This document shows, piece by piece, positions 1 through 64,000 of a stretch of DNA of 64,000 nucleotides; position 1 is the stretch's first letter; every line of letters starts with the position of its first letter. Location: IMG/VR virus record IMGVR_UViG_3300032227_001252. One strand, written 5' to 3'. The DNA is from an uncultured virus (IMG/VR IMGVR_UViG_3300032227_001252). Its lineage: Duplodnaviria; Heunggongvirae; Uroviricota; Caudoviricetes. The translations under genes and the position numbers were made by a program. The notes beneath the pieces are model-generated. The model worked only from the letters and a program-made list of their open reading frames with translations, was not told where the DNA came from and did no database searches.

Positions 1-36
1 GATCACGCCAGACCTCTCTACTCACGGAGCCTCACC

Positions 37-501
37 ATGAACGTCCTACCCTTCCTCTTCCTCTTCCCCCTCGGCGTGGCCTGCGGCAGTGAGGATGGAA
101 GTCTCGCCCTCTACACCAGTCCCGACGGTGGCAAGGAACTCAACTACGTGCCGTGCGCGGACATGGCTCTGGACACTGCAAGTGACGAGAACTCGATCAC
201 TGACCTCGCAGGAACTGGCTGGGTCAGCGGGGACGTGCAACTCGCCCTCAACAACCCCGAAGGGATGTGGAGTGACGGTTGCAGCGGGGGCCACATCCCC
301 GCCCCGTTTGCAGTGTCTGGGGGCAACTTCGAGTGGGACGCTCGCTCCCACGAGGTCGAACCCCAGCCGCTGAAGGTTTCCGGTTTCGTAGTGAGTCGGG
401 ATGCCCTCTGCACGTCCTTCCTATCGCCCGAGGGAGAACTGTATTGGGGGCCGATGCTGTTCTCCGCCACCGACAATATCGAAATCGCGTGGTGCGACTG
501 A
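37..501 (+). CDS. Hypothetical protein, possible lipoprotein
   Basis: 154 aa; GGAG upstream; hydrophobic N-terminus ending LGVAC (lipobox-like). Confidence 0.6.
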   Translation: MNVLPFLFLFPLGVACGSEDGSLALYTSPDGGKELNYVPCADMALDTASDENSITDLAGTGWVSGDVQLALNNPEGMWSDGCSGGHIPAPFAVSGGNFEWDARSHEVEPQPLKVSGFVVSRDALCTSFLSPEGELYWGPMLFSATDNIEIAWCD

Positions 502-528
502 CCCGCCAGCGGTCAAGGAGGAGAAGAC

Positions 529-612
529 ATGAGCGCATCGTGCTGCCGTCGCGTCGAACACTTCACGGACTACATCGAACGCGGCTGGCATCGCCGCGAG
601 GAGGAGGCATGA
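529..612 (+). CDS. 27-aa micro-ORF (MSASCCRRVEHFTDYIERGWHRREEEA)
   Basis: Strong SD AAGGAGG; stop overlaps next ATG (ATGA); C-terminus resembles the end of the 1285-1551 protein. Confidence 0.4.
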   Translation: MSASCCRRVEHFTDYIERGWHRREEEA

Positions 613-1076
613 CCGACAAGTGGGAGCCGACAATCGAGCCGACACCCTGCGTGGACAAGAACGGGGTGTTCATCACCAAGGGCATGACGGTGCGCTGCGA
701 CCGGACGCAGCACACGCCCCCCTTCAATCAGGTCGAGCAGGAGGGGGTCACCATCTCTGATCCCGTTTTCACGCGGAACATCTGGGGCGAGCACTACTGG
801 ATCGTTGACATCAAGGGCAACGGGTGGAGCACCAAGTTCACCCGCGTCCACACGCTTGAGGCCGTCGTCGAGGAGCGCGTGGAGAAACGCCCCTCAGACA
901 TCCAGCTGGAGCGCGACTCCATCGCAGACTGGCTTCGAAGCGAGCCGGAGACTGTGAAGGAGTGCAACGGCCACAGGCACAAGGACGGCAAGAAGTGCCT
1001 CGTCATCATGCCGATGACGCTGGAGGAGCTCGCCGACGCAATCGCGAAGGGCGACTACCCGAAGGAGACGCCATGA
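609..1076 (+). CDS. Hypothetical phage protein
   Basis: ATG at 609 after GAGGAGG; ATGA-coupled to neighbours; ends ERDSIADWLR...LADAIAKGDY. Confidence 0.7.
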   Translation: MTDKWEPTIEPTPCVDKNGVFITKGMTVRCDRTQHTPPFNQVEQEGVTISDPVFTRNIWGEHYWIVDIKGNGWSTKFTRVHTLEAVVEERVEKRPSDIQLERDSIADWLRSEPETVKECNGHRHKDGKKCLVIMPMTLEELADAIAKGDYPKETP

Positions 1077-1285
1077 ACGACCAGAACCCGCACGCCTGCT
1101 CGGACGGAGGCTGTGTCTTCAAGGTGCGAAGCCGATCTAGTGGCATGCACACGAATGGGGGGTGTCACTGCATCCCCGGCCCCGGAAGAACCATGACCAT
1201 GGACGATCGCACGAACATCAGGCTGGCCATCCTCTGGATGAAGTCAGAACTCGAGCGCCTGGACAAGGCCGCGAAGGAGAAGTGA
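1073..1285 (+). CDS. Small Cys-rich hypothetical protein
   Basis: SD AAGGAG; CSDGGC...GMHTNGGCHC; translationally coupled. Confidence 0.65.
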   Translation: MNDQNPHACSDGGCVFKVRSRSSGMHTNGGCHCIPGPGRTMTMDDRTNIRLAILWMKSELERLDKAAKEK

Positions 1286-1551
1286 TGGACTTCGAAGAGC
1301 ACAAGAAGAGGCAGGCGCGCGCTCGAGACCTGGGACTTGACTACGCCAAGATCCGAGAGGTCATCCAGAACGTCCACCTGGACGACATCCACGGCACTTC
1401 GATAGGCCGGGCCGTCGAAGAGATCCGTGAGCTCGCCCTGCAGGCTGTAGAGAAGGCCATCGAAGAGGAGCGGAAGGACGTCACGCGCTGGCTCCGGCTC
1501 ACGACGAAGTGGATCTCGGAAGGCGAACACCGCAGGGAGGACAGGTCGTGA
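1285..1551 (+). CDS. Hypothetical phage protein
   Basis: SD AAGGAG, TGATG coupling; ends ERKDVTRWLR...ISEGEHRRE. Confidence 0.65.
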   Translation: MDFEEHKKRQARARDLGLDYAKIREVIQNVHLDDIHGTSIGRAVEEIRELALQAVEKAIEEERKDVTRWLRLTTKWISEGEHRREDRS

Positions 1552-1754
1552 TGCTGCTCGTTGTGCTTCTGGGGTGCGGCCTGATTCAGGGGAGCGCGAG
1601 CGTGCCGGGTCAAGATCCGCCTCCCGTGCGCGCGGGGTGGAGGCCTCTCCAGCCTCCCCACGCGGGCGTGAGGTGCTGGTACACATCAAGCGTGGGGCAC
1701 GGCGCCGTTTTCTGCGAACCTGACCCCACGGCCACGCATGGAGCGGGGCTCTAA
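1551..1754 (+). CDS. Small putative lipoprotein
   Basis: MLLVVLLGC lipobox-like start; SD GGAGG; coupled to the previous stop. Confidence 0.5.
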   Translation: MLLVVLLGCGLIQGSASVPGQDPPPVRAGWRPLQPPHAGVRCWYTSSVGHGAVFCEPDPTATHGAGL

Positions 1755-2245
1755 GCCGGCCCCGGCTTCGCAGCCTCTTTCTTCGCCTTCTCGCGCGCGT
1801 GTGCGTTCTTGTTGCTGCACGTGCGAGAACAGTACCGAGACGTCATCGTGTGATCGTTCTCACACGGAGGCCAAGCACATTTGGCGTTTCGCAGTATCTC
1901 TGCCTCCAACGCGGCACGGCGTGCGGCCTTCTTCTGCTGCGCCTGCTCCTCCTGCCGCTTGATCTGGGCTTCCTCTTCAGCCTTGCGCGCTGCTTCGGCT
2001 GCCTTCTGCTCTGCTTCAATTGCCAGGCGGAGCATTTCACGGTCTACAGCCAGGCGCTCTTCTTCGCGTCGCTGACGAGCGAGTTCCGCGTCGCGTAGAG
2101 GTCCTACGCGCTCGGGGCCGTAGACGCGAGTACCACAGGTGACGCAGATCAGCACTTCGTCGTTCTGGCCCGACATCCAGGGATGGCGAGGGTACGAGAT
2201 GTGAGTCGCGCGACTGGAACACTTCGGACAGGGGATCTTGACCAT
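1751..2245 (-). CDS. Zn-ribbon/coiled-coil protein
   Basis: CPKC...CVTC at N-terminus, charged helix, C-terminal CAWPPC...YCSRTC. Confidence 0.7.
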   Translation of the reverse strand: MVKIPCPKCSSRATHISYPRHPWMSGQNDEVLICVTCGTRVYGPERVGPLRDAELARQRREEERLAVDREMLRLAIEAEQKAAEAARKAEEEAQIKRQEEQAQQKKAARRAALEAEILRNAKCAWPPCENDHTMTSRYCSRTCSNKNAHAREKAKKEAAKPGPA

Positions 2246-2970: not shown

Positions 2971-5739
2971 GTGCCCACGAAGCCCAAGAACTCGTCTACA
3001 CAGGACGATGCAGTCCGCCGTTCCCGCACCCGCGGGTCCGCAGTTCCTCAGCCTGAGCCGCCCGAAGAGGACGACTTCGAGGACGAGCTCGATGAGGACG
3101 AACTCCAAGACGAGATCGACGACGCGGTCAGTGACGCGTCCGCTCTCCGTGCTCTGAACGACCCCTCCACCATGCCGCTCGGTCCGGCCCCGCTCCTGGG
3201 CGGGTCAGAGACCTCTGTGGGCAACCTCTACGGTCGCGACGCGATGGCGCTCGGCCGTGCGAGCAGTCCCCGTCTGTGGGCACAGGCAGCGCAGTTCCCC
3301 ACCTGCTCGCAGCTCCGTGTTTGGCGCTGGGAGAACGGTATCCCCGTCGGCCTCGGCGCCATCGACGCGGAAGCGAACGAGGAGGACTTCGTCCGCGAGT
3401 TCTTCGAGGCGATGCCCAAGGTCGGTCAGGGCCGCATGATGTTCAAGCTCCGCCCCATCGACATCCGCGGGGAGGAGATGGGCAAGGAGCTGTCTCTGGT
3501 CATAAGCGAGCACCACGCAGCGTTGCAGGCGATCCGCCGTGCGAGGAAGGCAGAAGCAGAGGAGTCCATTCAGATGAACCAGCAGTCCGGCGCCCCCATC
3601 TACATGCCTCCCATGCAGGACGACTCTGGCGCTGCGTACGCCTCCGAGATGTCGCGCATGTTCGAGAAGGCCGTCGAAGCAGCGGACTCCCGCGCCACGG
3701 CTCTTGAAAATGCCCTGCTCGACGAGCGCGAGCGGCTTCGCTCAGAGGACGACAAGAGGGCGCAGGAGCGGATCGACCTGGCGACCAACGCGGCAGCAGG
3801 GGTTCAGGCCATCACCGAGCGCATGATGCGCGACGAGTCGAATCGTGCAGAGCGCGCCATGAAGGCGCAGACGGACCAGTCGCAGATGCTTCTGACGACG
3901 CTGACGCAGATCTTCGCGTCTGCGCAGGCTCAGCAGCACAGCATCAGCGAGACTGCCCGCGCTGCAGACCAGCAGCGCCTCGAGCAGGAGCGCCAGTACG
4001 CAGAGCGAGTGCGTTCAGAGCAGGAGGAGCGCCGCAAGCGCGACCTCCAGGAGATGGAGGAGCGCCGTAAGGCCGAGCAGAACCGCCTCGAAGACGAGCG
4101 CAAGCAGCTCCGCGATCAGCGTGAGTTCGAGATGAAGCAGCTCGAGCTCCGTGCAGAGCGCGAGCGCCAGGAACTCCTCTCGAAGCTGGAGCGGGACAAG
4201 GCAGAAGCCGCCGCCAAGCTCTCGCTCGAAGAGCGTCGTCTGGAGAAGGATCGTCAGGACAACGAGTCCCGCCTCCAGAAGATGCGCGAGGACGAAGAGC
4301 GCAAGCTGTCCGTCGAGAAGAGCGAGATCGACCGCCGCATGGAGCGCGAGCGCCTGGAATGGGAGCACCGCTGGAAGCTGGAGGCTGAAGAGCGCGACCG
4401 GCGCGAGCGCATGGCCCGCGAAGAGCGTGAACGAGTCGCCGCGATCGAGACGGAGCGTCGCCGCATGGAGATGGAGGAGCGCGAGCGCCGGGATCGCATC
4501 GACCGCGAGGAGCGGGATCGCCGTGCGAAGCTCGACGCGGACATGGCCGCGCTCAGGACGGCAGAGATGGAGCGTCGGGCCCGTGCTGAGGACGAGTCCT
4601 CGCGTATTCGCGAGGCGGAACGGCAGCGTGCCCACGAACTGGCCATCAAGCAGATGGAAGTCGCGGCAGGGCGTGACCGCGAGCACGCCGAGCGCATGCT
4701 CCAGATGCAGCAGCTCCAGATGCAGGAGCAGCGCGCCACGATGGAGGCGCGTGAACGCCGTGAGAAGGAAGAGGCGTCCAACCGCGATGCGGATCGCCTC
4801 CGCCAGCACGAGCGCATGCTCAAGGAAGTCGAGCTTCAGGCCCAGAAGGACCGGGAGCACGCTGAACGGATGATGCAGCTCACGCAGATGCAGTACCAGC
4901 AGAAGGCCTTCGGCGGTCTTGGGGAGCTCATCCCGAAGGCGAAGGAGTGGCTGGGCGATCTGGGTCTTGAGCCGGCTGACATCATTCAGCGCGTCTTCTC
5001 TCCTGAGCCCCAGGGCGGGGGAGGCGGCGGTGGCGGCGGCTGGGCCGATGCCATTCCGAAGGTGCTCGGCTCGCTCGCAGAGATGGGCAAGGTTGCCATC
5101 GAGGCACAGGCAGCAGCGAAGATGCCGCCGCGTGGGGCGCAGCAGCAGATCCCGCAGCAGCCCATGATGATGCCTCCGTTCAACCTTCCGCCGGGAGCGT
5201 CGGTCTCTCCCGTTCCGGGGTACCCTGGCATGATGGCGGTGCAGATGCCGTCTCAGCCCGGCACCAACGCGCTCGTCCCCACCAACCCGACGCAGCAGGC
5301 CGTCGACACGATCCTCGACGAGACCGTGTACAACGAGCCGTTCCCCGAGGTCGACCTCACGGCTGGCGAGGAGGCCGAGGGCGCGGAGGGCGGCGAAGAG
5401 CAGCCCGCAGTGGAAGAAGAGCCGGCTCCTCCCGCGGTCGAACCCGAGAAGATGACCATCCAGATGGCGACCGAAGCGGGCCTCTCGATGGCCACGCAGA
5501 AGCGCGCACGAAAGGCGCTTCGAACCTTGGTTCGCAAGTTGGGCGGAACCAAGAAGGAGGACTGGTTCGGGCACATCGCCGCGGCCATCCAGAACGAGAT
5601 CGGCATCTACCACTACGTCAAGGCTGTGACCGTGCGTGCGGCTCTCATCGAGGGCGGTGCGGACGAAGAACTGGCTGGTCGCGTGATGGAAGCCATGCGT
5701 GAATCCGGAATGATCCCCGCTGACGTCGAGTACGAGTAG
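2971..5739 (+). CDS. Large coiled-coil protein (922 aa)
   Basis: Long E/R-rich helical region with internal duplication (DREHAERM x2); acidic N-terminus; Gly/Pro/Gln-rich C-terminal part. Confidence 0.85.
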   Translation: MPTKPKNSSTQDDAVRRSRTRGSAVPQPEPPEEDDFEDELDEDELQDEIDDAVSDASALRALNDPSTMPLGPAPLLGGSETSVGNLYGRDAMALGRASSPRLWAQAAQFPTCSQLRVWRWENGIPVGLGAIDAEANEEDFVREFFEAMPKVGQGRMMFKLRPIDIRGEEMGKELSLVISEHHAALQAIRRARKAEAEESIQMNQQSGAPIYMPPMQDDSGAAYASEMSRMFEKAVEAADSRATALENALLDERERLRSEDDKRAQERIDLATNAAAGVQAITERMMRDESNRAERAMKAQTDQSQMLLTTLTQIFASAQAQQHSISETARAADQQRLEQERQYAERVRSEQEERRKRDLQEMEERRKAEQNRLEDERKQLRDQREFEMKQLELRAERERQELLSKLERDKAEAAAKLSLEERRLEKDRQDNESRLQKMREDEERKLSVEKSEIDRRMERERLEWEHRWKLEAEERDRRERMAREERERVAAIETERRRMEMEERERRDRIDREERDRRAKLDADMAALRTAEMERRARAEDESSRIREAERQRAHELAIKQMEVAAGRDREHAERMLQMQQLQMQEQRATMEARERREKEEASNRDADRLRQHERMLKEVELQAQKDREHAERMMQLTQMQYQQKAFGGLGELIPKAKEWLGDLGLEPADIIQRVFSPEPQGGGGGGGGGWADAIPKVLGSLAEMGKVAIEAQAAAKMPPRGAQQQIPQQPMMMPPFNLPPGASVSPVPGYPGMMAVQMPSQPGTNALVPTNPTQQAVDTILDETVYNEPFPEVDLTAGEEAEGAEGGEEQPAVEEEPAPPAVEPEKMTIQMATEAGLSMATQKRARKALRTLVRKLGGTKKEDWFGHIAAAIQNEIGIYHYVKAVTVRAALIEGGADEELAGRVMEAMRESGMIPADVEYE

Positions 5740-5748: not shown

Positions 5749-6393
5749 ATGAAGTACACCTTTGAGTCGAGTGAGACGGAAGTCACGGAGCTGTACGGGC
5801 TCATCGGACTGATCGCCAAGGAGGTCGGCAAGACCGTCCGTCACGCGAATGAGCTCAGGGCTCATACGCGGCACGGCAGCGGTACGCTGAGCACCTCCGC
5901 GGTCCCGCCGCTGCACGTGGTCAGCGACAGTGACGGTGAGTCCGCCGACGCTGACGTCATCGAGTTCCCCCGCCCGTCCGCTCGCAAGACGGAGCAGCAG
6001 ATCGAGGATGAGATCGTAAACGAGCCCGAGCCGCTTCCCGCTGACGTGGTCAAGCAGGCAAAGGCGGAGAAGAAGGGCCGCGACTCGTTCACGGGCTTCA
6101 TCCAGGACTGGCTCGTGGGCATCGACCCCGAGACCATGGCGCTCATCGAGGGGATCGTTCAGCCCGACCGCGCTCAGATGCTGCGAGACCTGCAGAATGG
6201 GCCTCACGCCTACAATCTGCTGATCTTCGTGAAGAAGTGCGGCGGCCTGCAGCGTGCGATCAAGGAAGTGACCGGTTCGGAGTCCCTCGCGCTCGCGCTT
6301 GCTCCGTTCATCGTACCGCCCGCCAGCATCGCCTTCAGCGACTTGGCTGACACCTACGAGTACACCAACCCCTTCGTGAAGGACGAGGATTAG
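5749..6393 (+). CDS. Hypothetical protein
   Basis: SD AGGAG; typical codon bias; in operon. Confidence 0.75.
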   Translation: MKYTFESSETEVTELYGLIGLIAKEVGKTVRHANELRAHTRHGSGTLSTSAVPPLHVVSDSDGESADADVIEFPRPSARKTEQQIEDEIVNEPEPLPADVVKQAKAEKKGRDSFTGFIQDWLVGIDPETMALIEGIVQPDRAQMLRDLQNGPHAYNLLIFVKKCGGLQRAIKEVTGSESLALALAPFIVPPASIAFSDLADTYEYTNPFVKDED

Positions 6394-6395
6394 CC

Positions 6396-6836
6396 ATGAA
6401 CATCCGCTATGAGTGCGCCATCTCCGGCGTGGAAGAAGACGCCTCGCTGGACAAGGTCGCCCCGCTCGGCGGGCTTCCTCTGGGCTGGTTCAAGGTCACG
6501 TTCGCACGTCAGGTGATGAACCCGAAGTGGATCGCGATCCAGCAGCTCAAGGAGGCGATGGTGTCCAACGTGCTGGGCCAGATCCAGAAGGCTGAGGATC
6601 GCGAGCTTCAGCAGGTGGCCGTCTCATTGCAGGTCGAAGCGCAGTTCGCCGCGCTTGAGGCTGCTACGCCGAAGTACCTGACGGAGGAAGACACCGTGTA
6701 CACCGCGCCGCCTGAGGCCGAGGACGCGATCCGCCAGGTGTTCAACGAGATCCGGGAACCGCTCGGACTCTCTTCCTTCTCGCAGGAAGATGCGGCGGAC
6801 GAAGAGGGCGACGCTGCGCCTGCATCGGCCGAGTGA
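6396..6836 (+). CDS. Hypothetical protein
   Basis: SD GAGGA; in operon. Confidence 0.75.
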   Translation: MNIRYECAISGVEEDASLDKVAPLGGLPLGWFKVTFARQVMNPKWIAIQQLKEAMVSNVLGQIQKAEDRELQQVAVSLQVEAQFAALEAATPKYLTEEDTVYTAPPEAEDAIRQVFNEIREPLGLSSFSQEDAADEEGDAAPASAE

Positions 6837-6902: not shown

Positions 6903-7856
6903 ATGGAACCGACCACTGCCCCCATCAAGCTCCCCGTGAAGTCCAACCGGATCCCTCTGGATGGACCGAAGGTGCATCATATCCCCACCTGGGGCGCGCT
7001 CGGTGACGGGCAGCGCCTCAACGTGATCCGTCAGATCGCGATGCAGCGAGCACGCGATCCCCGGATCACGACCCTCGCCTTGACGATCATCAAGGGTGCT
7101 GGGGTTCAGCCGCGAGACTACAAGGGGCAGGCCGCGGCGCTCCTGAAGTGGGTCCAGAACCCCCAGAACGTCTATTACATCAACGAGCCTGGTGAGCGCC
7201 TGCAGGACCCGCTGTACACCCTGAAGGTGAAGTACGGCGACTGCGACGACATGGCCCTGCTCCTGTGCTGCTTCTTTGAAGCCGTGAAGCTCGAGTGGAA
7301 GCTCGTCCTGTCTGGCCGCCAGCGCGGCACGGGGCACAAGAAGCGCTACATCGAGGGCGGCGCCATGCCTCCCGCGGTCAACTGGTCGCACATCTACTGC
7401 GTCGTCGGAACCCCGCCGTTCAAGCCGACGAAGTGGTACTTCTGCGAGCCCACGGTCCCGAACGTCCCGCTCGGCTGGGACGTCATCGACGGCGACCACA
7501 CGATGCTTCCCGAGATGGGCGGCACGGGCGTGTCGAAGCGTCCTGCAAACGGTCGTGTTTCTCGTCCCGCATCGAACCCGCTGTCGGGTCTTGCAGGACT
7601 GCTGCCCCTCGGCAACGGCGGCATCTCGTCCGCGGTTGCGAGCGCTGTTGCAACAGAGTTCGAGGACGACGCCCACGACGTCCAGCCTGCACGCCCGAAG
7701 GCGAAGTCAGAGCCTGGCATCTGGGGCATGGAGTTCAAGAAGATGCTGCCCGCCATCGTGATCGGCGTTACGACCTCTGTCGTCTCTCAGCTCCTGATGG
7801 ACGAGATCCGGGCGAGCCGTCAGGCATCCCGTGACGCGAAGAGGGTTCAGGAATGA
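6903..7856 (+). CDS. Transglutaminase-like (papain-fold) Cys enzyme with C-terminal hydrophobic segment; candidate maturation protease
   Basis: GDCDD (Cys), SHIY (His), CEPT (acidic residue); preceded by ...LLKWVQ...YYINEP...LQDP..TL. Confidence 0.8.
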   Translation: MEPTTAPIKLPVKSNRIPLDGPKVHHIPTWGALGDGQRLNVIRQIAMQRARDPRITTLALTIIKGAGVQPRDYKGQAAALLKWVQNPQNVYYINEPGERLQDPLYTLKVKYGDCDDMALLLCCFFEAVKLEWKLVLSGRQRGTGHKKRYIEGGAMPPAVNWSHIYCVVGTPPFKPTKWYFCEPTVPNVPLGWDVIDGDHTMLPEMGGTGVSKRPANGRVSRPASNPLSGLAGLLPLGNGGISSAVASAVATEFEDDAHDVQPARPKAKSEPGIWGMEFKKMLPAIVIGVTTSVVSQLLMDEIRASRQASRDAKRVQE

Positions 7857-17959: not shown

Positions 17960-17961
17960 TC

Positions 17962-55474: not shown

Positions 55475-55504
55475 GGAGGTCTCCGTAGTCGTAGGTAGGC
55501 TACG

Positions 55505-56742: not shown

Positions 56743-56744
56743 GA

Positions 56745-57314
56745 TCAGAAGCCACTCCGCTGGAACCGACCAGCAGAGGGCTGGAAGCCTGCGAGCGGCG
56801 CCTTGCCCTTCGGTGCGAGACCTTCCGCGGCGAAGAGATCCGCCTCGTACTTCCTGCGTGCAGCCAGGCCCTTGAGGACCTTGCCGCCTGCCGTCTTCGG
56901 CCCGTCAGCGATGGCCTTCTTGGCGCCTGCGTAATCGCCCGAGTTGAGCTTGGAGAGGATGGCCTTGAAGGACTTGGCGCCGAAGCCGGTGTTGAACCCG
57001 AACGAGAACACCGCGTCGAACATGCTCTGCGTCACAGGGACAGTGATCATGCTCGTGAGCTTGGACTCACGGGGGTTGAACGTCTCGTCGATGACCTTCT
57101 TGAGCGCGGCACCCTCGAGCTTGGCCTTGCCTGCAAGGTAGGAGGCGAAGTTCTTCTTCTCGTGGGACTCGATCTTCTTCCCGAGAGCGATCGTGGGGTT
57201 GCCCTTGAGCGCTGCCCATGACGAGACATCCTTTCCCGTCGCGTCGTCATAGACGTGCGGGCGGATGGCCTCCATCTTCTTCATGTGCTCAAACAGAGTG
57301 GCGCTGATCTTCAT
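56745..57314 (-). CDS. Phage lysozyme (GH24)
   Basis: E-x8-D...PTIALG; QSMFDAVFSFGFNTG; GGKVLKGLAARRKYEADLF. Confidence 0.9.
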   Translation of the reverse strand: MKISATLFEHMKKMEAIRPHVYDDATGKDVSSWAALKGNPTIALGKKIESHEKKNFASYLAGKAKLEGAALKKVIDETFNPRESKLTSMITVPVTQSMFDAVFSFGFNTGFGAKSFKAILSKLNSGDYAGAKKAIADGPKTAGGKVLKGLAARRKYEADLFAAEGLAPKGKAPLAGFQPSAGRFQRSGF

Positions 57315-57553
57315 CAGTTCCTCCGTGCCAGCGCGAGGCCGATGCCCAAGAAGCCGAAAGCGACCGCAGCGATACCCGCACCGATCGCCCAGGTGGGGAT
57401 GGCAACCATCTGAACGCCGCCCGGTGCGAGCTGCGCCACTTCGAGCGGCGCGGAGCCGGGCTCGTTGGTCAGGTCGTCACCTGGCTGCGGATCGGGAGCC
57501 GGAGTGTTCTTCGCGGCTGCGGGCGGGACGGGGCGTCCCTTGCTCTTGGCCAT
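57314..57553 (-). CDS. Small tail-anchored membrane protein
   Basis: C-terminal WAIGAGIAAVAFGFLGIGLALARR; coupled to the lysozyme gene. Confidence 0.7.
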   Translation of the reverse strand: MAKSKGRPVPPAAAKNTPAPDPQPGDDLTNEPGSAPLEVAQLAPGGVQMVAIPTWAIGAGIAAVAFGFLGIGLALARRN

Positions 57554-57562
57554 GGGATGCTC

Positions 57563-57994
57563 CTACCGACGCCGCGGGTTGGCGCGCCAGTGCATGATCC
57601 CAGCACGGTTGAGATCCCAGTTCGCCCATTCCTGGCCGTCGATGTCCGCGATCACCTCCTCGAGGGAGATGCCGGGTACAGGGGACGGGTTGTGGCGGTA
57701 GGGGTTCGTGCGGCGGAGCATCTTCCCGAGGATCTCCTGACCGCGGCTCGGGGTGGAAGCGTACTTGCCGGTCGATGCGCCCGTCTGCGCGTCCACGACG
57801 TGCCAGAAGCCGTCGCTCAGCTGCTTGAGGATGTAGCGGCGGCCTTCCGTCTCGTGGCGCTGCGTGTGCTTCGCAGTTGCTGCCCACGTGCTCTTCTCTT
57901 CATCGCCCCAGGGGACAGCCTGTCCACCAGTGGTGACCATGAAGGGGTTGCGCCGGGCCTTCCGCGGACGCTTGGGGGGCTTGTAGCCGGCCAT
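57563..57994 (-). CDS. NP-modular protein
   Basis: SD AGGAG; ARRNP, RTNP, RHNP, RANP. Confidence 0.75.
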   Translation of the reverse strand: MAGYKPPKRPRKARRNPFMVTTGGQAVPWGDEEKSTWAATAKHTQRHETEGRRYILKQLSDGFWHVVDAQTGASTGKYASTPSRGQEILGKMLRRTNPYRHNPSPVPGISLEEVIADIDGQEWANWDLNRAGIMHWRANPRRR

Positions 57995-58016
57995 GAGGTA
58001 GCTCCTGATGGCCAGA

Positions 58017-59516
58017 CTACCTCCTCTTGCGGCGGACCGGGCCTCCCAGGTAGCACTCCCGCACGAGGGTCGCGTTGAAGTCACCGTTCGCACTTCGCTT
58101 CGCGACGCCCTCTACGGCCGTCCACCCTCCCGCGGGGAGAGCGAAGGGCACCGTGACGTTGATGTAGGTCTGCGGAGCGACACCGACCGTGAGGAAGGTG
58201 AGCTTCGTCTTGTCCTTCTTCGAGTACCAGACACGCGAAGCGGCGATCGGGCCACAGAACTTCCAGCGGTCGGAGCCGTCAACCAGTTCAGAGAACTCGG
58301 ATCCCGGCGGCATCTGCGGGGATGACCAGTAGCCGAACTTCGACCACTCCTGTCGGAGTGTCAGACTGAACAACTCCTCCTGGCGGGGGCGCGTGTCTAC
58401 GAAGGGCGCCGCCTCGTGAGGGTGGACCCACGGGCGGTACATGGAGTGCGCGTGCGCCAGCGTGGACTTCCAGAAGCGGTGCGGGTCTCGAGCCTTGTGG
58501 TAGGCGAGCGCCCACACGACCGCGCCGTAGGCCACGCCGTGGGACTTGCAGAAGGCGTAGGCTCTGAACGCCTCCACCCGCTTGCGGAGGGCTGCGTCTT
58601 TGAGGATGGGCTCTCCGTCGGCTCCTCTGATCTCCTCTCCTCGCCCCTTCACGATGGCACGACGGACAGCATCGGCGATCTCTGGAGAACAGCGGCACGC
58701 CTTCGCGATGGCGGAGATGACGTCGTCCTCGTAGACCAGCGGCTCCTCGCTCTTCTTGTCCTCGGCAGCGGCCGGGCGGATGAGGGACGTGGCCAGCATG
58801 GCATCCTCCATCCGCTGCACGCCGATGCTCACAGCCGCCTTGCGGAACGCGGGGCTCTCTCCACCGATGATGCCGATGGAGTTGCCACTCGAGAGCACCT
58901 GCGCGGCCAGGGGATCCTCCTTGGGGTAGTCGAAGAGCGGACGGTCGCTGATGCCGTCGAGCTGCGCGAGCGCACGGGAGGACAGCAGGTCGACCTTGTA
59001 GAAGCCTGCCTTCTCCACGTCGTCCTTGTTCATGTTCAACTGCCCGGGCTTGAGCAGCATGTGGGACGGGATGGCGTCGTCCATGATGATGAGCCCGCCG
59101 CAGTGCAGGGACCAGTGGTGGAACTCTCCGTCGCGGTGGACCTTGTTGCTCACGCGGGCGACGCGGTTCCCGTACTTGCGGAAGACCCTCTCGAACACTT
59201 CATCTCTGCGGTTGTACGGGACGTCGATGTCGATGTCTGGGGCATCGGGTCGAAGGTCGTGCATGAACCGCGTGACCGGGATCTCCCACGCAACAGGGTC
59301 GATCTCCGTGATGCCGAGGTAGTAGCAGAGGAGGCTCGACCCTGCAGAGCCGCGGATGTTGTGCGGCACGTCGGGCATGAGGTCGAGGATCTCTCTGACC
59401 TGCACGAACATGCGCTCCAGGCCGTGCTTCTCGGCGATGCGCAGTTCTTCTTGAAGCCGTTGGGCGTACACGTCCGAGGTCGGAAGTGGCCGACGGAAGT
59501 AGGGCAGCAGGTTCAT
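58017..59516 (-). CDS. dnaE: Compact family-C DNA polymerase (DnaE-like, 499 aa, no PHP domain)
   Basis: RGSAGSSLLCYYLGITEIDP, PDIDID, KVDLL, YAFCKSHGVAY; OB-like C-terminus; ATG 59516 after GGAG. Confidence 0.88.
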   Translation of the reverse strand: MNLLPYFRRPLPTSDVYAQRLQEELRIAEKHGLERMFVQVREILDLMPDVPHNIRGSAGSSLLCYYLGITEIDPVAWEIPVTRFMHDLRPDAPDIDIDVPYNRRDEVFERVFRKYGNRVARVSNKVHRDGEFHHWSLHCGGLIIMDDAIPSHMLLKPGQLNMNKDDVEKAGFYKVDLLSSRALAQLDGISDRPLFDYPKEDPLAAQVLSSGNSIGIIGGESPAFRKAAVSIGVQRMEDAMLATSLIRPAAAEDKKSEEPLVYEDDVISAIAKACRCSPEIADAVRRAIVKGRGEEIRGADGEPILKDAALRKRVEAFRAYAFCKSHGVAYGAVVWALAYHKARDPHRFWKSTLAHAHSMYRPWVHPHEAAPFVDTRPRQEELFSLTLRQEWSKFGYWSSPQMPPGSEFSELVDGSDRWKFCGPIAASRVWYSKKDKTKLTFLTVGVAPQTYINVTVPFALPAGGWTAVEGVAKRSANGDFNATLVRECYLGGPVRRKRR

Positions 59517-59618
59517 GGCGGTCTCCGGGCAGGGACGCCTCTGCGTATCCAGGGGTTTGCCAGTTGACAAACGGGCAGGGCTGTAGCGAGGGCGGGCGGC
59601 GGAGGTTATGAGGTCAGC

Positions 59619-60080
59619 ATGAGCTACCCCCGCTGGTTGACCGAGCCTCTCGACGAGATGAACCTCCGCGAAGTGTCCTCCCGACTCTACGTCGGTGACG
59701 AGCGGGCGCCCCTGCGTGGAGGGTGGAACACGATCATCGACTTCTACGGTCACTCCGACGGCACCGTGCGGGCCGCGCACAGGAAGGCGAAGCACTACCT
59801 CTGCCTGCCCTTCGACGACGGAGACGCCTTCCCTACGGGCGCACTCGACGCAGCGTGGAAGGCTTGGCAGGATGCACATGCCGAGGGCGGCGACACGCTG
59901 CTCCACTGCCAGGCGGGCCTGAGCCGGAGTGCCTCCGCGGCCTACGCCCTGCTTCGAAAGCGCTTTGCGCTGAGCCACCCTGAGGCGCTCAAGCGCGTCG
60001 TCACTCCCTACACGTCACACCAGTTCCCGATGCCCGACACCCTTCGCTCCGCAGAGACGTGGGTGCGACGGAAGTCCTAG
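59619..60080 (+). CDS. Dual-specificity/tyrosine protein phosphatase
   Basis: HCQAGLSRS (CX5R) and upstream PFDD loop. Confidence 0.9.
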   Translation: MSYPRWLTEPLDEMNLREVSSRLYVGDERAPLRGGWNTIIDFYGHSDGTVRAAHRKAKHYLCLPFDDGDAFPTGALDAAWKAWQDAHAEGGDTLLHCQAGLSRSASAAYALLRKRFALSHPEALKRVVTPYTSHQFPMPDTLRSAETWVRRKS

Positions 60081-60700
60081 CGGAACTCGATCTGGTTGCC
60101 CAGTTCAAAGTTCATCGTGCACCGCAGCGTGAGCGGGACGGGGCAGTTGAAGGCGTTCTTCATGTCAATGCGGAAGCCGAACTGCGACCCCGTGGGAATG
60201 TTCAGGGGCTTCGGGAAGGTCACCGGAGCTTGAGCGTACTGCGCCTCGGGGCGCATGCCCCCGACTACGACCGTGGAGAGCGGCAGGGTCATCCATCGCG
60301 TAGATCCCGTGTCGACGCTGAACAGGGCCGAGAGGAAGAACCCGCAGGGCGTCTCCCAGAGCGGGCGATTCGCGAAGCTCTCGGTCGAGCGCGCGATGTC
60401 CTCAAGACCGCTGGATGGCGGCGTGACGAAGACCTCCCAGATGACCTGGTTCACGAGCTGAAGCGCGCCGGCAGGGATGGGCGTGAGATGGAAGCACTTC
60501 CCGCCGTGCTGCTCGTCCGCGGGGACTTTCATCTCCATGCTGGAGCTCCCAGAGCCGACCCGCAGGTAGGAGGGCGTGGGGGAAGCGGAGTAGGCGTTGC
60601 TCGACCACAAGTTGCTGTGGGAGATGATCGTCCCGCTCAGGTTCACGTTCCCGAGCGTAGTGTTGATCGAAGGGCCGCTGTGTGGGGGATGGTTCGCCAT
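60077..60700 (-). CDS. Beta-rich protein resembling the capsid-like genes
   Basis: SD AGGAG; PIPAGALQLVNQV...PKPLNIPTGSQFGFRI...LRCTM. Confidence 0.55.
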   Translation of the reverse strand: MANHPPHSGPSINTTLGNVNLSGTIISHSNLWSSNAYSASPTPSYLRVGSGSSSMEMKVPADEQHGGKCFHLTPIPAGALQLVNQVIWEVFVTPPSSGLEDIARSTESFANRPLWETPCGFFLSALFSVDTGSTRWMTLPLSTVVVGGMRPEAQYAQAPVTFPKPLNIPTGSQFGFRIDMKNAFNCPVPLTLRCTMNFELGNQIEFR

Positions 60701-60885
60701 CAGGGCGCTCCTGCGGGGAGGACGAGGGTGTAGTAGAGCACCGCCAAGATGCTTGCCATCACGAAGATGCGCAGAACCCGTCCGACCTTGCGGATCCAGC
60801 GGGCAACAGCACGATCGGCAGCCATGAGCACGAGCGCAGCGATGACGAAGAGTGTCATGCCCTCCCCTACCATCAACTTTGACAA
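60700..60885 (-). CDS. Small two-TM membrane protein
   Basis: Two hydrophobic segments; start uncertain. Confidence 0.5.
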   Translation of the reverse strand: MSKLMVGEGMTLFVIAALVLMAADRAVARWIRKVGRVLRIFVMASILAVLYYTLVLPAGAP

Positions 60886-60902
60886 CCGTCAACCGCGCCG
60901 GG

Positions 60903-61589
60903 TCAAGCGTCTACGCCAGTCATCGCCCTGCCGAACTGGGCCAAGGCGAAGCGGCCAGGGGCCGTGTCGAACCACGCCTCCACGGTGGGGCGCAAGGGGC
61001 CGTTCTGCTCGTAGTTGACGTCCTTGGTGTACTGCCACACCAGCCGCGCCTCATCAGGCACGTCGAAGCGGAACCAGCGGAACACTTCGGTGAGGTGCTG
61101 GGCGACGGCACCGGTCTTCCAGTGCAACCCGCCCGCGACCACGCCCAGGCGTTTCCCTGCCATCGGGTACGGCTCTCCCCAAGATGAGCCACGGTTCTCG
61201 AGCGTGTCCATGCGCTCGATGATGGTCTGCGCCAGCGCAGAGTGGCTGCCCCACCGAGTCGAGGTGCAGAACAGCACCGTGTCCGCCCACTTGAGCCCGT
61301 CGTAGATGACCGGCATCTGATCGAAGCCGCCGTACTTCGCGGGGTCGCGCAGGGACTCCTGATGTGCCCAGCAGCGGTACGGGCCTGACGCGGGGTTCGC
61401 ACAGTCGCGCTTGCCGTTGGCGTAGCAGCTCAAGTTCTTGACGATGTGGAGCTTGTTCGCGTCGATCACGCGCACTTCCGAGCGCGGTACGCGACGCTGC
61501 AGTTCGCCGACTGCGGCCTGTCCCATCGCCCAGCTCGTGGACTTCGCAGGGTCGTGCGTGGTGGTCATCACAGCAAGGATGCGTCGCAA
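60903..61589 (-). CDS. Flavodoxin-fold / NADPH-dependent FMN reductase-like protein
   Basis: DQMPVIYDGLKWADTVLFCTSTRWGSHSALAQTIIERM...AGKRLGVV; TTG start after GAGGA. Confidence 0.8.
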   Translation of the reverse strand: MRRILAVMTTTHDPAKSTSWAMGQAAVGELQRRVPRSEVRVIDANKLHIVKNLSCYANGKRDCANPASGPYRCWAHQESLRDPAKYGGFDQMPVIYDGLKWADTVLFCTSTRWGSHSALAQTIIERMDTLENRGSSWGEPYPMAGKRLGVVAGGLHWKTGAVAQHLTEVFRWFRFDVPDEARLVWQYTKDVNYEQNGPLRPTVEAWFDTAPGRFALAQFGRAMTGVDA

Positions 61590-61593
61590 CTCG

Positions 61594-61995
61594 TTAGTCC
61601 TCGTCGCCGTACGCGCTCTCTTCCGCGGAGGCCTCTTCAACCAGTTCCCGCCACGCGTGAAGCGGGAGTTTCGCGCGGTTGACCGTGCGGTCGAAGAGAT
61701 CCTTGAAGCCCACAGCGTGGCGGGCCTTGAACGCGCCCGGCTTCAGGGGCGCGACTCCAGGCGCGACGGTGTGAGAGCAGTTGGTGGCCGCGAGGTCGAG
61801 GAGCAGAGGCATCAGCGCAGGGTCGTCCGCGTACACAGACTGCAGTTCGGCGGAGCCGCCGAAGGTCATCACAGCGGCTCCAGCCACGAGGCGGCGCGTC
61901 TTGAGGTCGTACAGGAACACCCAGTAGGTGTCCTCGTCCTGTGCGCGTGCTGCGGCGAGGTGGTCTGTCGGCGGTGCGGTGTGGAGTCGAGCCAT
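61594..61995 (-). CDS. Hypothetical protein
   Basis: SD GAGG; extended -10 TGcTAGTCT upstream. Confidence 0.65.
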   Translation of the reverse strand: MARLHTAPPTDHLAAARAQDEDTYWVFLYDLKTRRLVAGAAVMTFGGSAELQSVYADDPALMPLLLDLAATNCSHTVAPGVAPLKPGAFKARHAVGFKDLFDRTVNRAKLPLHAWRELVEEASAEESAYGDED

Positions 61996-62062
61996 GGGGT
62001 CCTCGCCGTCCAGACTAGCACGACCCGCTCCCGTACGGGGAGCAGCAGTCCCCCCGTCCAGA

Positions 62063-62190: not shown

Positions 62191-62670
62191 ATGCGGCGAA
62201 ACCCCGACTACACCTGCTCCGTCTGCGGCGCGACCTTCCCCAGTAGGTCGCAGCTCAAGAGCCACGCCTACAAGGAACACGAGGTGTACGTCACCGCGGG
62301 GAAAGCCCCGACCAGTGTGCTCTACAGCGGTCCGCGGTGGAAGTGCTCCACGTGCGGGGAGGCGTTCTACACGAAGGCTGAACTGTCGAAGCACATGGAT
62401 CAGTACGCTAGGCGGTCGGCTGCGAACGCGACGCATGAGTACTTGGCAGAGGTTGCCCGGCGGCAGGCCGCGTACGAGCGCGCGCAGGAAGAACTCATGC
62501 GGAGGCAGCGCGCCGCTGCCGTTCAGGAGCGCAGTGTGTCTACCCAGCGCGCGCCCCAGAGAACGGGCGACAAGGGCGGCGCCAATGACATCGTGGTGTT
62601 GGCGACGTTGGCTATGCTCGCCGGCGGGCTCATGCTCGCGAATGATCGCAAGAAGGCAAAGAAGAAGTAG
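62191..62670 (+). CDS. C2H2 zinc-finger protein with RRNP leader and C-terminal hydrophobic segment
   Basis: CSVCGATFPSRSQLKSHAYKEH; CSTCGEAFYTKAELSKH. Confidence 0.8.
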   Translation: MRRNPDYTCSVCGATFPSRSQLKSHAYKEHEVYVTAGKAPTSVLYSGPRWKCSTCGEAFYTKAELSKHMDQYARRSAANATHEYLAEVARRQAAYERAQEELMRRQRAAAVQERSVSTQRAPQRTGDKGGANDIVVLATLAMLAGGLMLANDRKKAKKK

Positions 62671-62688
62671 ACCGGTTACTGTCGGGGC

Positions 62689-63291
62689 ATGGAAGACACC
62701 CCCTTCGCTGAAGCCGAGCGTGTGTTCGAGCACGTTCTTGATCTGATGGAGCAGGCCATTGAGGCCAAGTACCCGGGTGCAGGCGCGCTCCAGTACCACT
62801 TCCACTGGATGGGCGATCTGGCCGAGTACCGGCGCATCGGAGCCACCTTCAGGGACGCGCAGGATCGCTCCCGCGAGGCGGTTTTCCACCTGCCGGGCTC
62901 CACAGCGTTCACCTCCCACACGCGGGAGCGGCTACTCAGCAGCGAGCTGCAGTTGACGAGTCAAGACTACGCGCTGTTCCTCGACCTCGTGCACCTGGGC
63001 GGGTGCATCGGCTGCTGGAAGGTGGACGGCTTGATGTCGAAGAAGGCCAACGCGGAGGTGTACGGGCCCGGCATCACGTTGGGCCCCCTGCCGATCCAGC
63101 GCTACACCTACATCACGCCACTCGCCATCCTGGCCGCGTTTGCGGGAGGGACGCTCGAAGAGGCATGGCCTGACCGCAGGTTCCACATCGAGACCGCGTG
63201 GTACTTGTGGCAGGCGCGCCACGCCGAAGTGCGCGTAGCAGAGACCCCTGACGTCTTCCCTGAGGATCTGGACGCGCCCTCGTACCTGTAG
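62689..63291 (+). CDS. Hypothetical protein
   Basis: 200 aa; TACTGT-6 nt-ATG leaderless start. Confidence 0.65.
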   Translation: MEDTPFAEAERVFEHVLDLMEQAIEAKYPGAGALQYHFHWMGDLAEYRRIGATFRDAQDRSREAVFHLPGSTAFTSHTRERLLSSELQLTSQDYALFLDLVHLGGCIGCWKVDGLMSKKANAEVYGPGITLGPLPIQRYTYITPLAILAAFAGGTLEEAWPDRRFHIETAWYLWQARHAEVRVAETPDVFPEDLDAPSYL

Positions 63292-63353
63292 GTGTGCTAC
63301 CAGGAGGCCTCGGCGGGCCGCAGGACTGCTACACCTTGACACGAGAGGACATC

Positions 63354-63761
63354 ATGGCCCGCACCACTCTTCGAGCACTTCGGACCCGCATCGACACCAT
63401 CAACTCCGCGCTCGTGAACGCGGAGGCGCAGCTCCGCCGGCACTACGCGATGGGCGCTTTTTTCCGCGACCCGCGCTCCATCGAGCTTGAGGCGCAGGTC
63501 AAGATGCTGGAAGAAGCTGCGATGAAGGCAGCGGAAGAGGCGTACATGGTCTACCGCAACGAGGATGTGGCTATGGAGGCTGCACGGCACTCCGCCCCTG
63601 CCCTCCAGCGCCTCAGCGAACTCATCCGCAAGAAGGATAGCATCCGCTCCTCGCGGAACATCACGTTCCGCCGGAACCCGAACCGCGAGCTCGACCTGCA
63701 GCCCGATTCGCGCTCGATGGCTCAGGGGAACATGATGCGCAAGGCCTGGATGCGTGGGTAG
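63354..63761 (+). CDS. Helical hypothetical protein with C-terminal RRNP
   Basis: SD GAGGA; FRRNPNR. Confidence 0.7.
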   Translation: MARTTLRALRTRIDTINSALVNAEAQLRRHYAMGAFFRDPRSIELEAQVKMLEEAAMKAAEEAYMVYRNEDVAMEAARHSAPALQRLSELIRKKDSIRSSRNITFRRNPNRELDLQPDSRSMAQGNMMRKAWMRG

Positions 63762-63764
63762 AAG

Positions 63765-63841
63765 TGGCTCCCGCTCCCTGACTCGAACAGGGGACCCCTT
63801 CGTTAACAGCGAAGTGCTCTAACCAACTGAGCTAAGCGGGA
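63765..63841 (-). tRNA. tRNA-Asn(GTT)
   Basis: Full cloverleaf: acceptor TCCCGCT/AGCGGGA, D GCTC/GAGC, anticodon CTTCG-CTGTTAA-CGAAG, T CCCTG-TTCGAGT-CAGGG, encoded CCA. Confidence 0.97.
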
Positions 63842-63866
63842 ACGTGAGGACGCCTAACCGGTCGGG

Positions 63867-64000
63867 TCAGAAGATGTCGATCTCAATGACCATGTCTGCG
63901 GCGGCGCCCGCGGCCGGGATGCCGTCCGTCTGAACGGCGAGGTACTCGCCCTGTAGGAAGTCCACGCTGACGCCGTACTGCACCGCCGAGGTGCTGGCGC
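63867..64000 (-). CDS. 3' end of a beta-rich protein (partial)
   Basis: ...VDFLQGEYLAVQTDG...DMVIEIDIF*, similar to the F.xGD.L.V pattern of 48821-49920. Confidence 0.5.
   Translation of the reverse strand, partial: ASTSAVQYGVSVDFLQGEYLAVQTDGIPAAGAAADMVIEIDIF

Follow-up and report, generated by a model that had tools for sequence, protein, structure and literature searches.

A candidate lineage of large tailless jelly-roll viruses represented by a 64-kb freshwater metagenomic sequence

The DNA analyzed here, a stretch of 64,000 nucleotides from the uncultured-virus record IMGVR_UViG_3300032227_001252 in IMG/VR (the window), is on balance best read as an internal piece of a large tailless jelly-roll virus of freshwater bacteria. 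It would belong to an undescribed, widespread lineage with genomes of about 90–180 kb. Two small proteins predicted to adopt jelly-roll folds, g21 (233 amino acids, 23866–24567, + strand) and g23 (226 amino acids, 25556–26236, +), are the capsid-protein candidates, and a shell of g21 and g23 laid over an internal membrane is in our estimate fairly probable. Both lie in a conserved same-strand virion block (2971 to ~33000) common to five related contigs, three of which (G1–G3) are themselves IMG/VR virus records. Further virus-like traits are lysis genes, a homing HNH endonuclease in the capsid-gene cluster and phage-type replication genes. A preliminary description of the window had proposed a very large tailless, membrane-containing bacterial virus akin to PRD1, PM2, P23-77 and SH1. 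That reading is partly supported. The jelly rolls, the flanks and the relatives agree with it, the membrane and the tailless shape are deduced, and the window shows 64 kb of ~178 kb. The kinship to those four systems is not supported, as set out below.

g21 is the most conserved protein of the lineage. It had 853 relatives at E ≤ 0.01 (family clustered at 90%), and a full HMMER profile search gave 277 clusters at 50% identity. The 120 relatives listed were 56–96% identical to g21, lay on contigs of up to 162 kb and carried no Pfam domain and no name beyond "hypothetical"; Pfam likewise returned no meaningful family for 33 distant members. g23 had 508 relatives, all unnamed, on contigs of up to 178 kb. 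Homologues of g21 and g23 were absent from 50,697 GenBank phage records, and none of g21 was found among 72,556 plasmid records. Among the related contigs (G1–G5), identity was 56–62% for g21, 47–65% for g23 and 59–64% for a flavodoxin-like protein, the best conserved proteins of the window. Other genes common to the relatives were mostly 30–50% identical, with an SNF2 helicase and an Xer-like recombinase reaching 53–54%. Contigs bearing the g21 family span 39 to 66% in G+C content (GC), and its presence in a relative of 39% GC (G5) indicates that the family spans very different host compositions. G5 carries two tandem g21 copies (7777–9205), 62–66% identical to that of the window, and a contig from a Gemmatimonadales metagenome-assembled genome (MAG) likewise has two adjacent copies.

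An HNH/NUMOD4 homing endonuclease gene separates g21 from g23 (24647–25486, +; Pfam HNH_3 E 1.1e-9, phrog_59 E 3e-32). G3 and G4 carry it at the corresponding position; G1, G2 and G5 lack it. Mobile homing genes that target a highly conserved locus usually show such a distribution.

The AlphaFold2 model of g21, built on a 60-sequence alignment, was one beta sandwich, a single jelly roll, with a predicted local distance difference test score (pLDDT) of 68 and a predicted template modelling score of 0.68. That of g23 (55 sequences) had a pLDDT of 64 overall and 80–90 in the barrel. The predicted jelly roll spans residues ~87–222 and follows a disordered, Gly/Pro-rich N-terminal arm of ~85 amino acids. 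Assignment of both proteins to the jelly-roll fold class is supported by these models. Jelly rolls had been suspected among the products of 23866–27814, and two of them are now predicted to be such. The many beta-rich proteins reported earlier were checked for the same two, both of which modelled as beta sandwiches. A fused double-barrel form of g21 was considered for its longer relatives (up to 400 amino acids) and rejected. These carry helical N-terminal extensions, with no second barrel and no g23, g24 or g19 domain.

The models do not support kinship of g21 or g23 to any particular capsid family. Foldseek found nothing for g21 in the PDB at E ≤ 0.001; its best match was a capsid chain of SPV1 (E 0.014), followed by a cyanophage cement protein and plant-virus coats. 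VIA-align compared the models with 48,161 chains. For g21 it placed cement proteins of KHP40 (Z 6.9) and Pam1 (6.2) at the top, further down the STNV coat (5.9), STIV penton base (5.9), HHIV-2 (5.8) and SPV1 (5.7), and lower still PRD1 P3 (4.8), HCIV-1 (4.7) and P23-77 VP16 (4.6). For g23 the STIV penton base and a peptidylglycine monooxygenase (both 8.0) led, with a phage fibre chain (7.8), SPV1 (7.2), P23-77 VP17 (7.0), P23-77 VP16 (6.4) and the KHP40 cement protein (6.2) behind them. Because cement proteins top the g21 list, a jelly roll alone is no proof of a capsid role. The search of BFVD with g21 also gave nothing at E ≤ 0.001 (best E 1.1e-3, most matches unnamed); the best TM-score, 0.50/0.54, belonged to an unnamed 211-amino-acid entry, I1ZBH9, which may be a protein of Salisaeta phage SSIP-1. 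In the ESM Atlas, the named clusters nearest g21 were the PM2 P2 and PRD1 P3 capsid families (0.76–0.77), a lead only by that tool's calibration. The kinship with PRD1, PM2, P23-77 and SH1 put forward earlier finds no double jelly roll, no FtsK/HerA-type ATPase and no Z above 8, and tailed-phage cement proteins rank as high as capsid proteins.

The relatives were two MAG contigs and three IMG/VR records. G1 spans 105 kb (85% complete by CheckV estimate), G2 39 kb and G3 41 kb. G4 is a MAG contig of 92,743 bp with an exact 141-bp terminal direct repeat, from which it is taken as a circular, complete assembly of ~92.6 kb, and G5 is a MAG contig of 22.6 kb. By tblastn, the syntenic block common to them comprises g6, g7, g8, g9, g11, g15, g19, the C-terminus of g20, g21, g23, g24 and part of g27. 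Shared genes outside it encode the SNF2 helicase, the recombinase and the flavodoxin-like protein. Matches were obtained for 19 of the 70 window proteins in G4 and for 15 in G1. Recognisable genes of G4 encode PolA, a VapE-type primase-helicase, SNF2 helicases, methylases, an HNH endonuclease, a NUDIX/transglutaminase fusion, an anchored SLT transglycosylase, an M15 endolysin and an Rz-like protein. A 552-amino-acid fibre-like protein of G4 matched fibre and decoration PHROGs (phrog_11518, E 4.5e-18). One SNF2-type helicase of G4 (1090 amino acids, 75751–79023, −) gave a sub-threshold Intein_splicing match (E 3.5e-6, 27.3 bits against a 35.8-bit cut-off).

No terminase, portal, HK97 capsid or tail family was matched by the open reading frames (ORFs) of the window (Pfam 0/70, PHROGs 0/70, NCBIfam 0/66), as the preliminary description had stated. 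The same was true outside the window. G4 had no terminase, portal, HK97 capsid, tail tube or sheath (Pfam 0/119, PHROGs 0/113 ORFs), and no tailed-phage hallmark occurred in the 112 ORFs of G1 or in the 111 of G2, G3 and G5. The relatives were also searched in six frames with profiles for TerL_ATPase (PF03354), Phage_capsid (PF05065), FtsK_SpoIIIE (PF01580) and AAA_25 (PF13481), and G1–G3 with Terminase_6N (PF03237). These terminase, capsid, FtsK and AAA_25 searches gave nothing on the related contigs bar one sub-threshold FtsK match, to the P-loop of an SbcC-like gene in G2; otherwise, hallmark matches fell on other contigs of the two MAGs.

Packaging-ATPase families were equally missing from the window in Pfam, PHROGs and NCBIfam, and scans for Walker A and B motifs left the SNF2 protein g31 as its sole P-loop ATPase, in agreement with the earlier statement that no packaging ATPase is visible there. 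Across the window and its relatives, motif scans turned up only SNF2, VapE, SbcC-like, thymidine kinase and Sak4-like ATPases. P-loop ORFs of ~300 amino acids in G1 and G2 were considered as packaging ATPases and rejected. They turned out to be recombination proteins of the Sak4-like AAA_24 type, which the window lacks. Since both the ORF scans and the six-frame searches of the relatives came back empty, the lineage is, as far as sequence profiles can tell, one without recognisable tailed-phage hallmarks and without a recognisable packaging ATPase.

Membrane anchoring is a recurrent feature of the predicted proteins. A Kyte-Doolittle scan, which is crude and also flags some beta strands, found C-terminal hydrophobic anchors in about ten of them (g9, g14, g16, g17, g18, g38, g39, g42, g43, g61 and g67), bearing out the membrane-anchored proteins described earlier. 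Five of these (g9, g14, g16, g17 and g18) fall within the virion block. The pattern recurs in the virion blocks of G1 and G4, where the anchored proteins include an SLT transglycosylase encoded immediately behind the jelly-roll genes.

SSIP-1, whose circular genome measures 43,788 bp, is by sequence comparison the sole cultured link of the lineage and was not among the systems listed in the preliminary description. BLASTP against SSIP-1 (38-protein database) paired the window's g9 with the annotated structural protein gp34 at E 1.5e-8, and the G4 orthologue of g9 with gp34 at E 4e-10; gp34 itself matches Transglut_core, the family found in g9. A second link runs through gp43, a 2319-amino-acid structural protein with methyltransferase and ParB_N domains. 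Its residues 757–927 were 42% identical over 174 amino acids (E 1e-30) to a 726-amino-acid protein of G3 lying in the position of g10. The window's g10 itself gave no match to gp43.

Several observations weigh against a large tailless virus with a g21/g23 shell. A large icosahedral double-stranded DNA virus would be expected to encode a packaging ATPase, yet none of any known kind was found. Some ten ORFs of 300–550 amino acids in G4 match no family, and a divergent HK97 capsid, portal or terminase might go unnoticed among them. The internal membrane is deduced purely from hydropathy. The structural models are of moderate confidence only (pLDDT 68 for g21, 64 for g23), and the best Z scores, 6.9 and 8.0 respectively, fall in the range that VIA-align calls typical in the absence of a true match. 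The two top rows for g21 are tailed-phage cement proteins (KHP40 and Pam1), and the ESM Atlas labels the g21 clusters "Uroviricota". Comparison of g21, g23 and g24 by hhalign revealed no mutual profile similarity, and profile searches of g21, g23, g19 and g24 against PDB sequences gave nothing below E 0.08. Finally, the window is 64 kb, about a third, of a genome of probably ~178 kb, and the remainder could hold anything.

One rival reading is a piece of a huge tailed phage of HK97 type, its hallmarks lying outside the window or diverged beyond detection by hidden Markov models (HMMs) and its jelly rolls serving as cement, decoration or fibre tips. Behind the KHP40 and Pam1 cement proteins, the g21 list continues with a Ralstonia GP4 capsid entry and a tail-fibre chain of phage 7-7-1, and phage fibre and turret chains rank high for g23. 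The Uroviricota label points the same way, as do the DnaE-like polymerase, with its best match in a 484-kb uncultured phage, the fibre-like G4 protein with tail-fibre PHROGs, whose C-terminus is present in the window, and the coverage of about one third of a probably 178-kb contig. We nevertheless consider a tailed phage unlikely. Neither G4, with its 141-bp terminal overlap, nor G1, at 85% completeness, yielded a hallmark family in ORF scans or six-frame searches, and a terminase is normally the most easily detected phage gene. Cement and fibre proteins normally rank with the least conserved genes, whereas g21 and g23 rank with the most conserved of this lineage, and the GenBank phage records hold no homologue of g21 or g23.

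Two further explanations were considered. A large plasmid-like or integrative element, in which the jelly rolls are surface, adhesin or secreted proteins and the lytic enzymes remodel the wall, would agree with the failure to find a packaging ATPase in the window or its relatives, with the Xer-like recombinase and a MobA/NikA/RelB-like ribbon-helix-helix protein, with the apparent circularity of G4 and with the four relatives found within bacterial MAG bins. It is distinctly improbable in view of the plasmid records, which contain no g21 homologue, and of Pfam scans of the window and G1–G5, which contain no relaxase, VirB4, coupling protein or partition system. Lysozyme/holin-like and endolysin/Rz-like genes, homing endonucleases and unidirectional operons rich in ORFs without known relatives speak for a virus instead, as do the IMG/VR classification of three relatives as viral and the homology to two SSIP-1 virion proteins (gp34 and gp43). 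A virus of other architecture (pleomorphic, enveloped or nucleoprotein-filled), with jelly rolls as spikes or matrix, would explain the absent ATPase and suit the many membrane proteins and the basic Ala/Lys-rich segments of g16, g17, g28, g37 and g38; jelly rolls occur in spikes and turrets also. We hold it to be very improbable. Homology with SSIP-1 argues for a membrane-lined particle of icosahedral shape, g21 and g23 have a strong conservation and N-terminal arms that would be typical of lattice-forming coat proteins, and the pleomorphic prokaryotic viruses known to us have genomes far below 90–180 kb.

If the favoured reading of a large tailless virus is correct, g21 and g23 would form the icosahedral shell, with g24–g26 at the vertices or as minor capsid parts. 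An internal membrane beneath the shell would carry the anchored proteins, and the coiled-coil protein g6 and the conserved C-terminus of g20 could guide the assembly of a very large capsid, as scaffold or as size ruler. Anchored peptidoglycan enzymes would open the cell wall at entry, and the lysozyme and small membrane protein encoded at 56745–57553 would release the progeny. Replication would employ the DnaE-like polymerase and the SNF2 helicase, with the Xer-like recombinase resolving circular dimers. DNA could be packaged by an unrecognised motor, or the particle could assemble around condensed DNA.

A bolder version, which we put forward tentatively and with some doubt, is that of a globally widespread, as yet undescribed high-rank lineage of bacterial viruses of 90–180 kb whose very large, membrane-lined icosahedra of small single jelly rolls are filled with DNA without a known packaging ATPase, SSIP-1 being the only cultured, miniature relative. 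Filling could then be driven by the SNF2-type DNA translocase beside the virion block, or the shell could be assembled around membrane-tethered condensed DNA. To our knowledge, the large prokaryotic double-stranded DNA viruses described so far are all tailed, with HK97 capsid, portal and terminase, and we know of tailless jelly-roll phages only up to 44 kb. Should the reading as a large tailless virus hold, a widespread lineage would exceed that size limit. Its capsids would show that the jelly-roll build can house jumbo genomes in bacteria too, as it does in the giant viruses of eukaryotes, and would raise the question of how 100–180 kb of DNA is packaged without a recognisable motor. It would also expose a blind spot of marker-based virus detection, because the standard hallmark models match none of these genomes.

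The window has a GC of 64%. Gene calling guided by GC at third codon positions (GC3) gave ~70 ORFs, of which 62 were judged credible. The phage-like gene density and coupling described earlier were confirmed. Credible genes cover 91% of 2971–64000, and 26 of 54 same-strand neighbour pairs overlap or lie ≤10 bp apart. So were the Shine-Dalgarno sites, with a GGAG/GAGG core at −20 to −4 of 33 of the 62 starts, compared with 15% of random 17-mers. Genes run on the + strand from 2971 to ~53300 and then mainly on the − strand from 53549 to 62000. Some family was assigned to 16 of 70 ORFs by Pfam (none to the other 54) and to 14 of 70 by PHROGs; 10 of 66 matched NCBIfam, every match being sub-threshold. 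An Rfam scan returned a tRNA alone, and a tandem-repeat scan only coding repeats. The tRNA is a tRNA-Asn (GTT) at 63765–63841 (−; ARAGORN; Rfam tRNA, 65 bits). Of the DnaE, SNF2, Xer and "tRNA genes" reported earlier, the first three were thus recovered, and the tRNA genes reduce to this single one.

The first ~2.9 kb of the window have a weaker coding signal and small genes, which repeat a C-terminal "...GEHRR.E" theme. A 2.7-kb metagenome contig was 98.3% identical to positions 1–601, diverged beyond them and extended 1.9 kb upstream with further small phage-like genes. Positions 1–2900 and this variant contig together look like a hypervariable early region, and the continuation of small genes upstream indicates that the window is internal to a larger element. 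The visible upstream flank, one of the checks suggested in the preliminary description, is made of more phage-like genes and resembles neither a chromosome nor a plasmid. Exact 50-mer look-ups of the window found no match in viral or genome contig collections. The longest contig in the record of the 100%-identical g23 cluster measures 178,212 bp and is probably the parent contig of the window. A ribbon-helix-helix regulator is encoded at 2421–2909 (−), divergent from the virion operon. Its NCBIfam matches (RelB/MobA-like) were below cut-off, and it was 41% identical over 54 amino acids to a NikA-like ORF in the same place in G4.

The virion block opens with g6 (2971–5739, +), which combines a conserved N-terminal domain, ~500 amino acids of Glu/Arg-rich coiled coil, a Gly/Pro-rich stretch and a C-terminal domain. 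It matched no Pfam or PHROG family and has orthologues in G1, G3 and G4, with residues 55–385 being 49–53% identical to G4. The small acidic conserved proteins g7 and g8 (5749–6836, +) had tblastn orthologues in the same three contigs. They are followed by g9 (6903–7856, +), a transglutaminase-like protein of papain fold with a C-terminal membrane anchor. Its Pfam Transglut_core match (E 8.7e-4) was stronger in the orthologues of G4 (E 4.4e-11) and G3 (E 9.3e-8). Next comes g10 (7853–14923, +), a giant protein of 2356 amino acids in the position filled by gp43 in SSIP-1. Neither Pfam nor PHROGs assigned it a family, the PDB and tblastn against phages gave no match, and it was absent from G1 and G4 by tblastn. 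The conserved core protein g11 (14955–15323, +) was 44–59% identical in G1, G3 and G4. Inside the operon, a pentapeptide-repeat protein is encoded at 15378–15881 (+; Pfam E 5e-36). Its NCBIfam matches to Qnr, MfpA and PipB were far below cut-offs, so that it has only the repeat fold in common with them.

Downstream lies an Ala/Lys-rich run, g14–g18 (16358–20543, +), with hydrophobic C-termini read as membrane anchors; its members g16 and g17 are among the five proteins with basic Ala/Lys-rich segments named above. g16 (18220–19608, +) binds peptidoglycan by prediction (Pfam PG_binding_1 E 2.5e-13), and the conserved g15 (85 amino acids) has orthologues in G1 and G3. g19 (20543–21193, +), a conserved core protein, has orthologues in all five relatives at 35–46% identity and a C-terminal motif Y.H..GEE...GG.YT.P..GIT, with no lead in the PDB or ESM Atlas. 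Its "GGRHGKT...VIAADE" stretch was considered as a pair of Walker motifs and rejected, the GKT not being conserved in the g19 alignment. In g20 (21633–23762, +), a long protein, the last ~100 amino acids are conserved, and tblastn matches in G1–G5 were confined to residues 586–709. After g23 come g24, g25 and g26 (26246–27814, +), small and apparently beta-rich, g24 being conserved with orthologues in G1–G5 at 29–34% identity. The gene after the jelly-roll cluster in relatives encodes a peptidoglycan hydrolase, namely SLT in G4, M23 in G3 and Phage_lysozyme2 in G2. In the window, g27 (27877–32220, +) follows, a giant protein of 1447 amino acids that is partly conserved (residues 443–580 match G2 and G4). 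It had no phage tblastn match and no PDB match, and look-ups in IMG/VR with g27 and the DnaE-like polymerase found none.

Peptidoglycan-targeting genes, noted in the preliminary description, were recovered as two PG_binding_1 matches and one Phage_lysozyme match. Besides g16, these are an N-terminally anchored peptidoglycan-binding protein with an endolysin-like C-terminal domain (40330–41313, +; PG_binding_1 E 3e-15, phrog_3000 E 2e-31, phrog_33083 (endolysin) E 2e-14) and a lysozyme (56745–57314, −; Phage_lysozyme E 1e-17, phrog_7 (endolysin)). Beside the lysozyme, a small holin-like protein with one transmembrane segment is encoded at 57314–57553 (−), which we infer to be the holin. A GDSL-like hydrolase of recognisable family with a C-terminal anchor lies at 44987–45625.

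Among the replication genes, g31 (35026–36591, +) encodes an SNF2-family ATPase/helicase beside the virion block (Pfam SNF2-rel_dom E 2.5e-22, phrog_62 E 2e-71), with orthologues 35–53% identical in G1–G4. The Xer-like tyrosine recombinase (51248–52036, +; Pfam Phage_integrase E 5e-34; NCBIfam XerC E 1.6e-40, below cut-off) also has orthologues in G1–G4. The DNA polymerase is a short DnaE-like protein of 653 amino acids (58017–59978, −; Pfam DNA_pol3_alpha E 1.2e-29). Its Pfam match begins at residue 166, and its best tblastn match was the uncultured 484-kb phage LR756508.1 (33% identity, E 7e-78). G1, G2 and G4 carry PolA in place of DnaE, which indicates that the replication module has been swapped within the lineage.

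The remaining genes are more varied. The flavodoxin/FMN-reductase-like protein (60903–61640, −; Pfam FMN_red E 8.8e-8) was 59–64% identical in G1, G3 and G4, a conservation like that of the capsid candidates and unexpected for an accessory gene. A DndB/DGQHR-like protein (38849–40255; Pfam E 2.6e-18, phrog_36010 E 7e-50) has a GC3 of 0.91, the top value in the window, and may be a DNA-modification or anti-defence gene. Four small beta-rich paralogues beginning "MAN..." stand in tandem on the + strand (47256–47798, 47829–48311, 48821–49180 and 49193–49555). BLASTP related g44 to g45 (42% identity, E 8e-27) and g45 to g48 (E 3e-4), and tblastn found no match to them in G1–G5; they may form a variable, host-facing set. 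At 62191–62670 lies a eukaryote-style C2H2 zinc-finger protein with an RRNP N-terminus and a C-terminal membrane anchor (Pfam zf-C2H2 E 7.6e-11). The C-terminal end of a fibre-like protein, whose gene leaves the window, is encoded at 63867–64000 (−) and was 56% identical to the C-terminus of the 552-amino-acid G4 protein.

The motif RRNP occurs eight times in 7 of the 62 window proteins, compared with 0.2 expected from 300 composition-preserving shuffles (maximum 3). The positions are residue 1438 of g10, 12 of g12, 10 of g55, 3 and 279 of g57, 2 of g59, 2 of g67 and 126 of g69; the motif is also present in the ribbon-helix-helix protein at 2421–2909 (−). It is frequently found at the extreme N-terminus, as M(A)RRNP, and is enriched in relatives too (3 against 0.3 expected in G4, 2 against 0.3 in G1). 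NP[FW]G occurred six times, with 0.1 expected. RRNP may be a targeting or cleavage signal.

Sequence near-identical to 20543–27814 was detected in three runs of one freshwater study (0.41–0.52 of sampled words) and in one run of a second (0.23); the probable source run was set aside and smaller shares were not counted. The window's own strain recurs in freshwater runs of at least two studies besides its source. MAG bins containing relatives were labelled Gemmatimonadota, Alphaproteobacteria and "proteobacterium", binning being weak evidence of host. Our literature search turned up neither a description of large tailless jelly-roll viruses of bacteria nor one of metagenomic relatives of SSIP-1.

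Among known systems, huge metagenomic tailed phages such as LR756508.1 (484 kb) resemble the window in their large genome, own tRNA, DnaE-type polymerase and giant proteins without known relatives. Unlike the window, these phages have HK97 capsid, portal, terminase and tail families, and LR756508.1 contains no g21 or g23 homologue. PRD1 and PM2 are comparable in their membrane-anchored peptidoglycan enzymes, PRD1 P7 being a virion-associated, membrane-anchored example, and in the Atlas lead to PM2 P2 and PRD1 P3 (the latter at Z 4.8). Their capsid proteins are double jelly rolls, whereas the models of g21 and g23 have one barrel per chain. Their genomes measure 10–15 kb, and the FtsK/HerA-type ATPase of that group was not found in the window or its relatives.

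The Helvetiavirae (P23-77, SH1, HHIV-2 and HCIV-1) build their capsids from two vertical single-jelly-roll proteins, to which the window's two neighbouring small jelly-roll predictions might correspond, at scores common for unrelated folds. Their genomes of 16–31 kb show no sequence similarity to the window. In these viruses a packaging ATPase gene precedes those for the small and then the large capsid protein, an order that is conserved; no such ATPase is present in the window, where the genes upstream of g21 (g19 and g20) have no conserved P-loop. In the Portogloboviridae, SPV1 (PDB 6OJ0) has the single-jelly-roll coat proteins VP4 and VP10. Its Foldseek E of 0.014 with g21 and its Z scores of 5.7 (g21) and 7.2 (g23) are in a range common for unrelated folds. 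SPV1 has an internal membrane and no known packaging ATPase; it infects an archaeal host, its genome is ~20 kb, and it has no sequence similarity to the window.

Reviews describe SSIP-1 as a virus with a circular 44-kb genome and a T=49 capsid of 100 nm (PMC6260650). They present it as a tailless, membrane-containing phage of PRD1-type architecture that has two types of capsid protein (PMC6356626, PMC4958249). Its 44 kb (PMC6260650) exceed the 10–31 kb that the preliminary description had quoted for known internal-membrane tailless viruses. The window lineage, at 92.6 kb to probably 178 kb, would surpass the cultured viruses of this build several-fold. Unlike that lineage, SSIP-1 has an AAA_25 ATPase, gp40, among its structural proteins (E 5e-11). 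No tblastn match to gp40 occurred in the window or its relatives, and the six-frame PF13481 search of the relatives was empty. HMM and hhalign comparisons of g21, g23 and g19 with the 38 SSIP-1 proteins gave nothing significant (best gp46, E 0.29 and 0.59). What the two have in common is a giant protein of more than 2300 amino acids adjoining a transglutaminase-like gene (gp43 with 2319, g10 with 2356), a run of family-less proteins of 130–260 amino acids further downstream in the block, a tyrosine recombinase and, in the relative G4, a circular genome.

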